Shown here: positions 12,064 to 64,000 of the stretch, piece by piece
Layout: the number at the start of each line of letters is the position of its first letter
Numbering within the stretch: position 1 is the stretch's first letter
DNA from: Octopus vulgaris
Taxonomy: Eukaryota
Direction: 5' to 3'
DNA: 64,000 nt
Assembly (NCBI GenBank): GCA_951406725.2
Contig: OX597815.1
Span: 77,190,001-77,254,000 of the forward strand
Notes under the pieces: model-generated
The model's input: the letters and a program-made list of their open reading frames with translations, nothing else
Databases searched by the model: none
Told to the model about the DNA's origin: nothing
Made by a program: the position numbers and the translations under genes

Positions 12064-12545
12064 TGAAAAAACAAGTCAAAAATAGAAAATGCTAAAATAA
12101 TTTTATAGTGAACATTTCAGTACCGGTTTCGGTCATTTTGAGACCTTTTCAACTGTAACGATTAAATAATTAAATTTAGAAAAATTAGAAGAAAAGTTTT
12201 TTAAAAGAATATTTCTATAGTAGTGTTCAGATTTAAGTGGCATTCTGCCTTTCTCTGACTCCCTTGTTTGCACTTGTGTGTCGGAGGTCGTTGTGAGTTC
12301 TTGGAAGGGTAGTAGAGGAAGAAGGCTGGTGGGGAAAGGGGGATGGGAGAATCTGGGAGTGCCCTGATGGTCGTATTTTGAATGGTCAGTGGCGGCTGGC
12401 AGTCTCAGTTCAATTCAGGAGAATATTTATATTGACAGGCTTGTTTATAGAATTAGCGTAGGTGTTACCCCTTAACTTTGTCACTAATGTTTTTTAGTAT
12501 AACACCATTATTTTAGCATTTTCTATTTTTGACTTGTTTTTTCAT
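12064..12545 (-). mobile_element. Short PLE-derived insertion with ~38-bp inverted ends and a hammerhead; A-specific
   Basis: 12064-12101 is the reverse complement of 12508-12545; lies in (TA)n; absent at B ~52735-52772. Confidence 0.75.
12118..12155 (-). ncRNA. Minimal type I hammerhead motif, U3-A8 variant
   Basis: Minus strand: cag UUGAAAA GGUC-ucaaaau-GACC GAAA CCGG UA cug. Confidence 0.75.
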
Positions 12546-12602
12546 ATATATCAACTCGTGTGTTCCTTTTCACCCTTATACATATATATATATGTATAAG
12601 GG

Positions 12603-13607
12603 ATGGTGGATGGTGACTGGATGGTGACCACTTTAATAGCTAAGATTAATAATAACAACATTAAACTAGCCAGGAAAAATAGAAATAAAAATAATAATAT
12701 CAGCATGAATACCAATAGCAATTATAATATTACTACCAACAATAAAAACAGCAATAGTAACTATCAAAACATGGGTGAAATTAGTTACCACAGAATGACT
12801 AATAACATTAACATTAATAGTAATAATAACAATACTGATATTAATAGAAGTAATAATGTTAATAATAGAAATAATAGAAATAAGGCTAATGGAGAAAATA
12901 AGGAGAATGAAAATATCAGTGATATCTATAGCAACAATATGCAGTCGGATAAAAAGACTAACAATAATAGTAACATTACCAATAATATAAGAAATCATGG
13001 TAGGACTTTAGACCTAAAAGATGAAACAGAAGGATCAATAAATAATAGCAATACTTTAGATATCAGCACCAACTATAGAAATATTAATAACAATAAGGAC
13101 AATTATACTCATGATAATCAAAATAATAGGAACCTAAGACATCTACCCAAGAATAATCCAAAACCTGAAGTTGTTCCTCCTGTGTGTAAGTGTAGAATAA
13201 AATCAAAATGCCCGGCACCTGGTCTATGCGGGGAAAATAATGTAATCTATAAATGTACCATATCCACGGAGAATAACAAATATTTTTACATTGGATGTAC
13301 AATTAATTTTCTAGCCAGAGTTAGAAATCACATCTCGTCTTTTAAATTACGTCATAAAGCTGGTACCACCACACTTTCAAACAAAATCTGGGAACTCAAA
13401 AATAATAATAATAATTACAACCTTAATTGGGAAATAGTTAGGAGAGCAATTCCGTATAAAAATAGCAGGGTTGGTTGCCAACTATGCTCCATGGAGACGT
13501 ATGAAATTCTAAAGCATAGAAAACATAGAAACTTATTGAATAACCATATCGAACTAGGTCAAGTTTGTGTCCACGCTAAATTGAAGACTTTAAAATATTT
13601 TAAATGA
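12603..13607 (+). CDS. PLE GIY-YIG endonuclease ORF with Asn-rich N-terminus and no RT
   Basis: CKC..CP..GLC...NVIYKC...YIG.T..F..R..NH..SF...TLS..IW.LK...CQLC..E. Confidence 0.8.
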   Translation: MVDGDWMVTTLIAKINNNNIKLARKNRNKNNNISMNTNSNYNITTNNKNSNSNYQNMGEISYHRMTNNININSNNNNTDINRSNNVNNRNNRNKANGENKENENISDIYSNNMQSDKKTNNNSNITNNIRNHGRTLDLKDETEGSINNSNTLDISTNYRNINNNKDNYTHDNQNNRNLRHLPKNNPKPEVVPPVCKCRIKSKCPAPGLCGENNVIYKCTISTENNKYFYIGCTINFLARVRNHISSFKLRHKAGTTTLSNKIWELKNNNNNYNLNWEIVRRAIPYKNSRVGCQLCSMETYEILKHRKHRNLLNNHIELGQVCVHAKLKTLKYFK

Positions 13608-60519: not shown

Positions 60520-61640
60520 GTGAACAGCTTTGGGTGGGGCCGAAAGCAGTGAGTTATAATTATTGTGCCCGGAAGAATTTGGTGCAAAGCCTATTGATAG
60601 CGTAAAGAGGGAGAAACGTTGTCGAGGAGGCAGCGTCTTCTGGAAAAACTGAGGTCTGAGAGGAAGAGTTGTCAATAGGAAAAGGAGAAAAGCTCATGAA
60701 GATGCGCAGGCTAATCTTTTGGAGTTGTATGAGTTTGTGAAGAGAAAGTGCTGAGACGTCAGGTCAGAATACCTTTTTCAGATGAGGAAGCGTCGAAAGA
60801 AACAAAGAAATTTTAACAAAAATCCATTCGGTTGTATAAAGAATATTACTGAAGTGGAGGCATCCAGATCATTGGAAGAACTGCGAAATAATATGAAGTC
60901 AACATATTCATGTAAGAAGCGAAAAAAGCCAGTGGCACAATGTTTGATAAAACCAACAGGAACATTGCATATGTTTGATATAGATAGGTTGCAATTAAGG
61001 GAGGTTGATGTTGTGGTATGGAAGGCATGTGCTGGTATCACAGTGGGCCAATTAGCTCTCTTACTCGCTTTTCATATATTATCTTCAGATTTTTGTGACA
61101 GATTCTCTACTTAGTGAGTTGAAGAACAGGCAGACATCCTAAAGTACAAGGACGTTAAAGGGACTCGTCAGTTGCAATCAATGTCACTGTTCTCGATGTT
61201 GATTGGGACGTTTTGATGGAACGGAAGTTGACGGGTTTTGTCCTAAAGAACAGAACTGTGTATGTAACTGAGTAGAAATGTTCGGTTCCGGGATTTTTAC
61301 GCTGCATTGAGCATGTATAGATGGTTTAAAAATTCATTCTGTGGTGTAAGCAAAACATATGGATGTTGATGTCTTTAGGTTAGATTTTGCTTATGCAAAA
61401 CTCGATTTCCCACAATTACATACAATTTATACTCGCGTTCAAGTATAAATTCTGCGAATTGCTCAAGTTAAGATTCACTACAGATTCGTATAACACATAA
61501 TGGCAGCCCTTGGAGATAGGGATTCACAGAGGGTACTTTTTCTCACCACTACCCTTTACAAAGAGAACTGAGATTTTGAATTGTATGTCAGAGTGAACTG
61601 AAACATTGTTACTTGTAAAGGGAGTTATGTTACCTTCAGT
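60520..61640 (+). mobile_element. Decayed non-LTR retrotransposon RT fragment, possibly RLE-clade (truncated at 23058 in A)
   Basis: RKKQRNFNKNPF, then remnants resembling GVPG..GC.EH, LDFAYA and GI..G...SP. Confidence 0.5.
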
Positions 61641-63488
61641 GTAGGTGTTCATACAGGCTTTTTTCAGTTTCCGTCTACCAAATCCACTCACAAGGCTTTG
61701 GCCAGCCCGAGGCTACAGTAGAAGACACTTGCCCAAGGTGCCACGCAGTGGGACTGAACCCGGAAACATGTGGTTGGGAAGCAAGCTTCTTACCACACAG
61801 TCACGCCTATATATATATATATATATATATATATATATATATATATATATATATATATATATATATATATATACATATATATATATATATTTCCCGAGCG
61901 TTATACTAATACATATGTTTGTTGTCTACACCACCTGTCTTCGTCTTTGTTTTGTTGTGAATTCTCCACCCCCATATATATATATATATATATATATATA
62001 TATATATATATATATATATACGCATACCTACATATCTATCTATCTATCTATCTATCTATCTATCTATCTACCTATCTATCTATCTAATTGTTAAAGAGGG
62101 CAATTGTTAAACAGACGATAAGGCAAGGCAAACATCTCAAGTCATATACATTATTATTATTATTATTATTAGAATTCTAATAATATTAATGTTTGCCTTG
62201 CCTTAACGTTTGTTGTCCTTTTTAACAATTATATATCCGCTATATCGGAAATCTGCAATGGCTCCATAACTATATATATATATATATATATATATATATA
62301 TATATATATATATATATATATATATGAGCTGGAGAGTCCATCACACACACACACATATATATCTTCACCTTATAGTAGGTATGTATCTAAATTTTGTACG
62401 ACTCATACTCTTTAGTCCCTTTCACAATTTCTTCCCCTTTTCTTTTTCTCGCTACCCCTCTCTTTCACACATTTCTTTTTCCTCTCTTTAACACCAACTA
62501 TTTCCCCCTCATTTATCACCCTTGTACCTTTCTCTTTGATTTTTTTGTAATCCTTCAATCCCGCTTCCCCCTAACCCTCTCTCTTCCTTCCACGTGACCG
62601 AAGTCTGGCCAGCCATGATATTTCTTTCTTGGCCTGACTGCCGACCGCCAACACCTCTTATGTCCATCTCCTGTGTTCCTGCCTTTAGGCTTTCACTTCA
62701 TGCACGCCAGCTCAATTTGGTTCGTTTTCAGTCGAAAGATACCAGTTATTATTTTCTTGTGTTTGTATTTGTAATTGTCTACCATGTTCCCCGTGTTTTG
62801 TCTTTGTTGCCGTACATATTCCTTAGCTTTCTTACAAAAAGGTCTAATGCTCTTAGCTTAGACGTTTTTTGGAGCAACCAGGTCGAACTGTCTCAAGTGT
62901 AACTGCTCGAAACGGTTATGACTTCTGGTACTTGACTGAGGAAAGAAGGTCACGAATGACCCGTCTTCTTTTGCCTGTCCTATTTATTCTTTCTCCTGTC
63001 CGCCTTTGTATCATCTATCTGTCCCGAATGTTTTATTGTCTCCTATTGCGTTTTTGTTCCATTATACACACACACACACACACAGGTACTAGGTACTAGG
63101 CTTACAAAGAATAAGACTTGAGGTTGATTTGTTTGACTAAAGACGGTGCTCCAGCATAGCCGCTGTCAAATGACTGAAACAAGTAAAAGAATAAAAGAAT
63201 ACATCTATATCTTTTATCTTTTACTGGGTTCAGTCATAAAACTGCGGCTATGCTGGTGCACCACCTTGGAGTATTTTTGTCGAATGAATCGGCCCCAGTT
63301 TGTTTTTTAAGTTTGGTACTTATTCTATCAGTCTCTTTTGGTGAACCGCTAAGTTACAGGGATGCAAGCACACCAACACCGGTTGTTAAGCGGTGATGGG
63401 GAACAAACACAGACACAAAGACACACACACACTCATATATATATATATATATACATATATATATATATATATATATATATATATATAT

Positions 63489-64000
63489 AAGAAAATAGTA
63501 AAGTGTGAAAAAACGACAGAAGGCTTAAATGTTAAAAAATATATATATTTGTGTCAAAATGTCTGGAGAATATTGGAAAAATTTTTTTCCCTTTCCTTAA
63601 AATGACATAATTTTAAAATTTTTAAAGAAATTACCGGTTTCGCGTGTAGCTTTTCAAATTTCTTGTGACGTTATGTTTATATTGCATGGAATTATCGTTG
63701 TTTTTATTTCCAGGAGATTTCTAAATAAGGGGAGGTAGTGAGTGATTTTTTCCGGTGTAGGGGAGATAATCGCTTAAAAATTTTTTTTCCCATTTCCTTG
63801 TTAATTTCTCTGTGTCAGTATGTTCGGATGGTTGAGTCTGGGTTTGTACTTTTCAATGAAGAATGTTTCCTTGTTCAGTCTCATTTGTGTTGATGATCCG
63901 AAAGCACATTGGTAAAATGGGAAGATTAAAAATTGTGGCAGTAGTTGCTTTGCGCATTTCTCAATGTGCTCACTAAAAGGTATCATTCTATATTCTGGGA
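63489..64000 (-). mobile_element. PLE 3' end (GIY-YIG C-terminus plus hammerhead); runs off the window
   Basis: ORF 63801-63986 is similar to 16197-16571; ends in (TA)n. Confidence 0.8.
63625..63664 (-). ncRNA. Minimal type I hammerhead, U3-A8 variant, 7-bp stem I
   Basis: Minus strand: aagaaau UUGAAAA GC-uacac-GC GAAA CCGG UA auuucuu. Confidence 0.8.

Follow-up and report, generated by a model that had tools for sequence, protein, structure and literature searches.

Results

Hammerhead motifs with four different core pairs

We analyzed a 64,000-nucleotide (nt) stretch of the Octopus vulgaris genome (contig OX597815.1, positions 77,190,001 to 77,254,000; the window) that carries hammerhead ribozyme motifs. 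Most of the window's motifs fold as minimal type I hammerheads at the 3' ends of Penelope-like elements (PLEs). Across the genome, such motifs sit at the ends of PLEs and of 348–362-nt tandem elements, and the pair between core positions 3 and 8 occurs in four forms: C-G, U-A, A-U and G-C. The motifs are found in both pseudo-long terminal repeats (pLTRs) of elements that encode a reverse transcriptase (RT) and a GIY-YIG endonuclease, and two lineages have switched the pair internally, between G-C and A-U in family E and between U-A and C-G in the tandem arrays. A pair that is kept while its identity changes is what selection on the active fold predicts, and the amplified families with one of the four pairs probably reflect selection for a cleaving fold on their source elements. 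Published sources are cited for the parts of their text that were available.

Genome-wide search

The preliminary description of the window had proposed that positions 3 and 8 covary, and had suggested checking this by a genome-wide search with any base at both positions and by a covariation test. A total of 2.80 Gb was searched with the pattern N3 UGA N N8 A R N5-14 Y GAAACSSGU, the matches were split by positions 3 and 8, and the reversed pattern served as a control. The counts are of loci, with paired or inverted copies counted separately; the pattern covers ACSSGU stems III with short stems II, and shares within it are not shares among all hammerheads.

U3-A8 yielded 9,539 matches against 49 in the control (~190-fold), A3-U8 1,518 against 82, and C3-G8 156 against 16, all far above the control. 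The remaining combinations gave 346 matches (control 124) for other bases with A8, 142 (control 83) for other bases with U8, and 440 (control 115) for G8 without C3. In a sample of 30 loci per class, the mismatch copies with A8 or U8 were mostly single mutants of large families or stemless matches. G3-C8 accounted for 19 of the 32 rows listed for any base with C8, mostly belonging to family E and lying downstream of PLE open reading frame (ORF) pieces.

The expectation that a large pool escapes CUGANGA searches was borne out, with C3-G8 making up 156 of 12,407 descriptor matches and no Rfam hammerhead model reaching its threshold. Ten short window loci gave a single HH9 match of 19.7 bits (threshold 52), and the best 150 of 197 matches in a scan of the whole window contained microsatellite and hairpin miRNA matches but no hammerhead. 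Because these motifs almost entirely escape CUGANGA descriptors and Rfam, hammerhead counts in such genomes are underestimates.

All ten 7-nt cores listed in the preliminary description are present in the window; on the minus strand, position 3 lies 6 nt beyond the number quoted there, at 12152, 16046, 22153, 30969, 53451 and 63657, and we name the sites accordingly. A window descriptor with positions 3 and 8 free, tuned after the sites had already been seen, recovered 12152, 15085, 16046, 53451 and 63657 when at least three stem I pairs were demanded, plus a mismatch copy at 33480; 40 block-wise dinucleotide shuffles (2.5 Mb) then gave 0 Watson-Crick matches and 3 others. Lowering the demand to two stem I pairs added 22153, with 3 Watson-Crick and 9 other matches in the 40 shuffles. 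The remaining four sites (30969, 30995, 19827 and 57473) were assessed by eye.

Chance matching in AT-rich repeat DNA is a very improbable explanation of the motifs. The core is short, a stemless high-copy repeat fits the loose pattern, and site 57473 fails the descriptor. Against this stand the five Watson-Crick window matches with none in the shuffles, the U3-A8 excess over control and the fixed position of the motif in pLTRs; chance origin is refuted for the five clean sites and could apply to 57473 alone. The high-copy repeat itself, with CUGAUUA before GAAACCGGU (12 of 30 loci sampled), was rejected as a chance match without stem I or stem II; stemless matches were not counted as families, and this repeat stands outside the family set described next.

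Covariation across families

We defined 21 families and subfamilies by hand, after the data had been seen; some consist of 1–3 copies, and mismatch classes are enriched in the sample. In 19 of the 21 the majority pair at 3-8 was Watson-Crick, the exceptions being U3·G8 and C3·A8. The shuffled mean was 6.8, and none of 100,000 shuffles came to 19; this result is not a probability because the families are related. The control column pairs 3-7 (9 of 21) and 2.1-8 (8 of 21) were both within chance. Covariation at 3-8 thus lies far beyond chance both genome-wide and across families, as the preliminary description had expected; about three to five independent two-sided switches appear to underlie it, a small number because the copies are related. 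Two-sided changes were seen in stem I as well.

All families examined keep G5, A9, GAAA and U16.1, which are partly built into the patterns. An NUH cut site is present: A15.1-U16.1 is built into the patterns, H17 mostly is not, and most families carry a base other than G at position 17. A second G3-C8 family (G), with an AU-rich palindrome, was met unselected. Families E and G both carry A or U, not C, at position 17; avoidance of C17 by G3 families thus holds in two of two families, too few to claim a rule. It has been hinted that G3 with C17 is less active (PMC3884650). One further pattern, which captures indel variants only and gives no family size, returned 42 rows: 19 U-A, 19 G-C, 2 C·A, 1 G·U and 1 U·C.

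Switches within lineages

With positions 3 and 8 left free, family E gave 253 matches against 0 in the control. A hand count of the first 100 rows found 50 A-U, 43 G-C, 2 A·C, 2 G·G, 1 G·U, 1 C·C and 1 U·C, and A-U and G-C both occur with an identical stem II. Across 28 distinct rows the 3-8 pair scored 0.804, compared with a shuffled mean of 0.445 (reached in 0 of 500 shuffles). In a tree built from the flanks, with positions 3 and 8 masked, A-U copies are nested within G-C, and the family E switch appears to be one or a few events.

The tandem-array lineage consists of units of 348–362 nt with one type I hammerhead each, often with inverted arms (loci L181-L210, L288, L084 and L381-L392), and its cores are C-G, C·A and U-A. 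In the array tree, whose bootstrap had not fully settled, C-G and C·A copies form a 99/95 clade, and the U-A copies split off one after another beneath it. The C·A cores could have arisen by CpG decay; the tree leaves the order of C·A and C-G unsettled.

Pair changes were also seen elsewhere. At locus L290 (G000:C1:7828096-7828240), two adjacent inverted copies carry U3-A8 and A3-U8, respectively, the latter being the only A-U copy seen in its family. A family with an AAUU palindrome (L280, L287 and window site 33480) contains U-A, C·A and C-G copies.

Penelope-like element context

The motif at 63657 lies ~145 nt behind the GIY-YIG C-terminus of its element; a second copy with the same orientation is located 3,997 nt upstream, with an inverted copy beyond it. 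Hammerheads therefore occupy both pLTRs of this element, as they do in a second PLE with motifs at 24276 and 28656. PLE ORF pieces were found upstream of families A, B, C, D and E and of the U6 family described below, and other copies of family A terminate RT+GIY-YIG ORFs of 784 amino acids (aa). The main U3·G8 subfamily retains an open ORF of 775 aa and has one base missing at the stem I junction; that base is also missing in some of its U3-A8 relatives. Loci L274 and L275 match Pfam RVT_1 above the cut-off, while their GIY-YIG matches of 22.4 and 15.7 bits fall under the cut-off of 22.6.

The elements belong with the C-terminal-endonuclease PLEs, Neptune or Nematis, that PMC8557442 describes. 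They share with those PLEs a single RT+GIY-YIG ORF with a Zn-finger-like CX2-5CxxC linker, a feature common to Neptune and Nematis, together with (TA)n targets, pLTRs and inverted 5' copies. Our quick protein tree, built from copies of the elements alone, used the 38 of 56 copies with ORF pieces whose pieces were at least 105 aa long, ignored row L214 (a family A hammerhead beside a family B ORF) and left 18 of 35 inner branches open. It separates clades with U-A (families A and B), A-U (families C and D) and G-C/A-U (family E), with U·G nested in family B.

The PLE origin given in the preliminary description is supported for the families of 12152, 16046 and 63657. No PLE ORF adjoins the 1–6 copies examined per family for 15085, 19827, 22153, 30969/30995 and 57473, and the PLE origin of these families is putative.

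Proposed mechanism

The stems III are palindromic (ACCGGU, ACAUGU, ACGU and 8-nt palindromes), and cofolding predicted a double-hammerhead dimer, formed through ACCGGU, for three of the four motifs tried (12152, 16046 and 63657). Two motifs in one tandem transcript may thus pair through the palindromic stem III, and the predicted dimer would cut the RNA after NUH. Cutting at both pLTRs would release unit-length RNA, with a predicted size of ~4.0 kb in family B and ~360 nt in the arrays.

The C3-G8 pair has been seen only in the tertiary-stabilized active structure (PMC3884650). Nucleotide 8 has an essential 2'-OH, and a G8C change is partly rescued by C3G (PMC8495972; PMC11167929); in vitro, a PLE hammerhead is rescued in part by the double change C3G/G8C (PMC11167929). 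A 3-8 pair of any identity may be all that is needed to place the 2'-OH of nucleotide 8, in which case a source element could move between pairs through tolerated U·G, C·A and G·U intermediates. Once inserted, copies would probably decay under neutrality, and this would account for the few percent of 3-8 mismatches that are scattered among them.

A more far-reaching version can be offered only tentatively: the natural core would be N3-U-G-W-N-N8-A, ~26,000 U-A, A-U, G-C or U6 motifs would be active in vivo with the PLE protein, and the amplified U·G and C·A subfamilies would preserve the stepwise path of repeated identity changes in a catalytic tertiary pair, including a return from U-A to C-G.

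Evidence against selection on cleavage and alternative explanations

Several points weigh against selection for cleavage. Mismatched cores have amplified: 26 of 31 rows sampled from the 440 matches with G8 and no C3 were U3·G8, a young U3·G8 subfamily (L275, L276, L277 and L280) consists of near-identical copies, and a C3·A8 subfamily has multiplied in tandem arrays. The class of any base with C8 as a whole, at 266 matches, is below its control of 584. The largest family has U at the supposedly invariant position 6, where a natural A6C variant cleaves slowly (PMC3088659). The families were, as stated, defined by hand with the data in view, and they are related to one another. Within family E, sliding the partner by +3 columns still scores 0.767, close to the 0.804 of the 3-8 pair, and therefore subfamily markers travel together; starred branches of the flank tree hold only 1 independent pair, and the independent-pairs test had no power. 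Taken together, the slide and the single pair mean that family E alone cannot separate compensation from hitchhiking. Finally, self-cleavage here is a prediction, one PLE inserted in vitro without needing hammerhead cleavage, and no RNA-seq reads ended at that element's cut site (PMC11167929). In the present data, contig runs (4 of 24, with four organism labels) held no alternative letter at 10% or more at 12070–12159, which is uninformative on RNA ends or expression.

Shared ancestry would account for the covariation if a few founders happened to carry complementary bases at positions 3 and 8 and copy number inflated the signal. Few families supply nearly all counts, a neighboring column co-segregates with position 3 in family E, and about half of the inner branches of the quick protein tree are open, as given above. 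This account would nevertheless need no fewer than three separate two-sided switches: one that divides U-A from A-U/G-C among the clades with ORFs, one from G-C to A-U within family E, and one from U-A to C-G within the arrays; there is a further G-C family besides. By eye, pairing between position 3 and the +3 column is seen in only about 5 of the 21 family motifs. We consider shared ancestry a rather improbable explanation.

The fold could instead be retained chiefly because it serves the PLE protein as a structural signal, in binding or template positioning, with cleavage weak or dispensable. The success of the U·G, C·A and U6 families fits this idea, as do the hammerhead mutants that left in vitro insertion unchanged, with no RNA ends at the cut site (PMC11167929), and the proliferation of PLE clades without canonical hammerheads (PMC8557442). 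What speaks against a mainly structural role is that the 3-8 pair belongs to the catalytically active conformation (PMC3884650), that protein-assisted cleavage depends on this pair (PMC11167929), and that the core bases listed above, which are partly built into the patterns, are kept in all families examined and a non-G17 in most. On balance a structural signal seems unlikely, and selection for the cleaving fold remains our preferred reading.

A large family with U at position 6

The largest family seen carries U in place of A at position 6 (A6U; U6), with 15,588 exact genome matches and 0 in the control. Among its first 100 rows, U stood at position 6 in 96, and position 7 took all four bases, as expected for N7. 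Cofolding did not predict a dimer for the U6 motif. A6 is kept in all ten sites of the preliminary description. Three U6 motifs lie in the window (Table 1), two of them in the pLTRs of the PLE noted above.

Hammerhead sites of the window

The features of the window are collected in Table 1. Canonical C3-G8 cores (CUGANGA) are those at 15085, 22153, 30969/30995 and 57473.

Table 1. Hammerhead motifs and associated reading frames in the window.
Feature	Position	Strand	Details
Minimal type I hammerhead, U3-A8 (family A)	12118..12155	-	Stem II 4 base pairs (bp); palindromic ACCGGU stem III; A17
Hammerhead, C3-G8	15079..15169	+	60-nt stem II insert; stem I 6 bp; A17
Minimal hammerhead, A3-U8 (family C)	16017..16051	-	Stem II 2 bp; ACCGGU; C17; stem I 5 bp
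Open frame	16200..16634	-	C-terminal GIY-YIG end of the 16046 PLE in its first ~95 codons
Decayed hammerhead, U3-A8	19822..19862	+	Stem II 5 bp; ACAUGU palindrome; stem I damaged
Hammerhead, C3-G8	22039..22155	-	94-nt stem II hairpin; near-palindromic 8-nt stem III; 2-bp stem I
U6 (A6U) hammerhead-like motif, C3-G8	24271..24308	+	5' pLTR of PLE
PLE, 1098 codons	24637..27933	+	Direct repeats 24127-24413 and 28500-28792
U6 hammerhead-like motif	28651..28688	+	3' pLTR of the 24637-27933 PLE; 194 nt from (TA)n
Hammerhead, C3-G8	30924..30976	-	One arm of a palindromic short element; 4-bp stem III; 7-bp stem I
Mirror arm of the 30969 element	30990..31040	+	Stem I shortened
C3·A8 mismatch copy of a mostly U3-A8 family	33447..33483	-	Counter-example to the pairing rule
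Third U6 hammerhead-like motif	37737..37774	+	
Duplicate of the 16046 A3-U8 hammerhead	53422..53456	-	Within segmental duplication
Hammerhead-like motif, C3-G8	57470..57565	+	70-nt stem II; ACGUACGU palindrome; stem I broken
Minimal hammerhead, U3-A8 (family B)	63625..63664	-	Stem I 7 bp; in 3' pLTR of near full-length PLE
C-terminal GIY-YIG end of the 63657 PLE's frameshifted ORF	63800..64000	-	ORF runs past the window (L286)

The preliminary description had placed the ten motifs in independent elements, and here they reduce to eight independent insertions. A segmental duplication of ~23 kb (23-23058 versus 37891-60858, identity 95–98%) contains both 16046 and 53451, which are therefore a single insertion, and a palindromic element supplies both 30969 and 30995, one on each of its arms. 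The duplication copies hold different later insertions, and both contain a broken RT-bearing element (2684-3436 and 40512-41923, plus strand).

A type I topology, claimed for all ten, holds for the five sites that pass the descriptor, for a sixth with a 2-bp stem I, and for 30969, which folds as a full three-way junction in the model; in the window copies of 19827 and 57473 stem I is damaged and a three-way junction is not formed. The distance from core to (TA)n, given as about 80–300 nt, was 89–247 nt to the next (TA)n run at eight of the ten sites, with exceptions at 30995 (60 nt) and 57473 (401 nt). Pairing at 3-8 is not kept without exception even inside the window, where 33480 on the minus strand is a C3·A8 copy with intact stems. 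That copy, the three U6 motifs (24276, 28656 and 37742) and the G3-C8 pair class had been missed.

Homologs elsewhere in the genome help to judge the less regular sites. Those of 15085 (L285, L257 and L240) keep the core, and a homolog of the damaged 19827 motif (L285) passes the descriptor. A motif related to 22153 at L015 has a perfect palindrome; within the 22153 hairpin an alternative U3-A8 reading was rejected, as it has no stem II. The predicted stem II of 30969, which has homologs at L279, L094 and L168, starts with U-U. Site 57473 is the weakest of the ten, and its homolog L001 keeps the core and the long stem II.

Stem I of 12152 consists of 3 bp plus further pairs. The 3' end of this family A copy recurs inverted ~400 nt upstream (12480-12530, minus strand) and is followed by a 335-codon open frame (12600-13607, plus strand) without a Pfam match. 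A GIY-YIG remnant lies directly upstream of the 16046 hammerhead; the open frame there has no Pfam match on its own and matches L275 from residue 676 onward by tblastn. Tandem repeats precede the 19827 motif (112-nt repeats at 19244-19457 and 36-nt repeats at 19621-19725), which suggests that it may belong to a non-autonomous element with internal repeats.

Comparison with known systems

In the literature consulted we found no natural A3-U8, G3-C8 or A6U core; their absence from print is not established, and variant surveys may show them, such as that of Lünse in 2017, which reportedly holds about 150,000 PLE hammerhead variants. With this proviso, what is new here comprises the A3-U8 and G3-C8 pairs, the switches inside lineages together with their amplified intermediates, and the large U6 family. 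C3-G8 is canonical. U3-A8 in PLE hammerheads is already known: it was published from 2014 on for Schistosoma PLEs, with about 1,300 matches (PMC4209133), and as a natural covariation (PMC3088659); A3-U8 is not among these reports in the parts available. The available text of PMC6765202, bioRxiv 10.64898/2026.07.22.740005 and PMC13725137 contained no further core variants.

Whether PLEs need hammerhead cutting is an open question, as one PLE inserts without cleavage and some clades have no canonical hammerheads. Repeated compensated change at a pair that the active fold contains argues, on evolutionary grounds, for selection of the active conformation. Sister subfamilies provide natural controls for assays: the G-C and A-U forms of family E, the three cores of the arrays (U-A, C·A and C-G), and the U-A and U·G members of family B.

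The motifs share with the minimal hammerheads of PLEs (PMC4209133) the type I topology, the palindromic stem III with a predicted dimer, the position in both pLTRs and the presence of many families per genome. They differ in that cores other than C3-G8 dominate the ACSSGU class and that four pairs occur in one genome. Among the 56 representatives in Fig. S3 of that source there is one with U3·G8 and none with an A3, G3 or U6 core. A squid genome was reported to hold 235 Rfam hammerhead-1 loci (PMC6962438). Natural core variants described earlier (PMC3088659) include the same U3-A8 covariation, a 2-bp stem II, a change at position 6 (A6C) and the U10.1-U11.1 start of stem II seen at 30969; those are rare single examples, and A3-U8, G3-C8 and A6U are unnamed in the available text.

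The arrays are retrozyme-like: they agree in unit length and hammerhead content with non-LTR retrozymes, which have tandem units of 170–400 nt with one type I hammerhead each (PMC7229834; bioRxiv 10.64898/2026.07.22.740005), and their 348–362-nt units are predicted to be highly self-paired, as are retrozymes (PMC7229834). Unlike those, the array lineage combines C3-G8, C3·A8 and U3-A8 cores. The G3-C8 pair, in turn, is the one engineered in the hammerhead of the Anolis Poseidon PLE as C3G/G8C, where it is partly active in vitro (PMC11167929); in O. vulgaris it is natural and has been amplified in two families.

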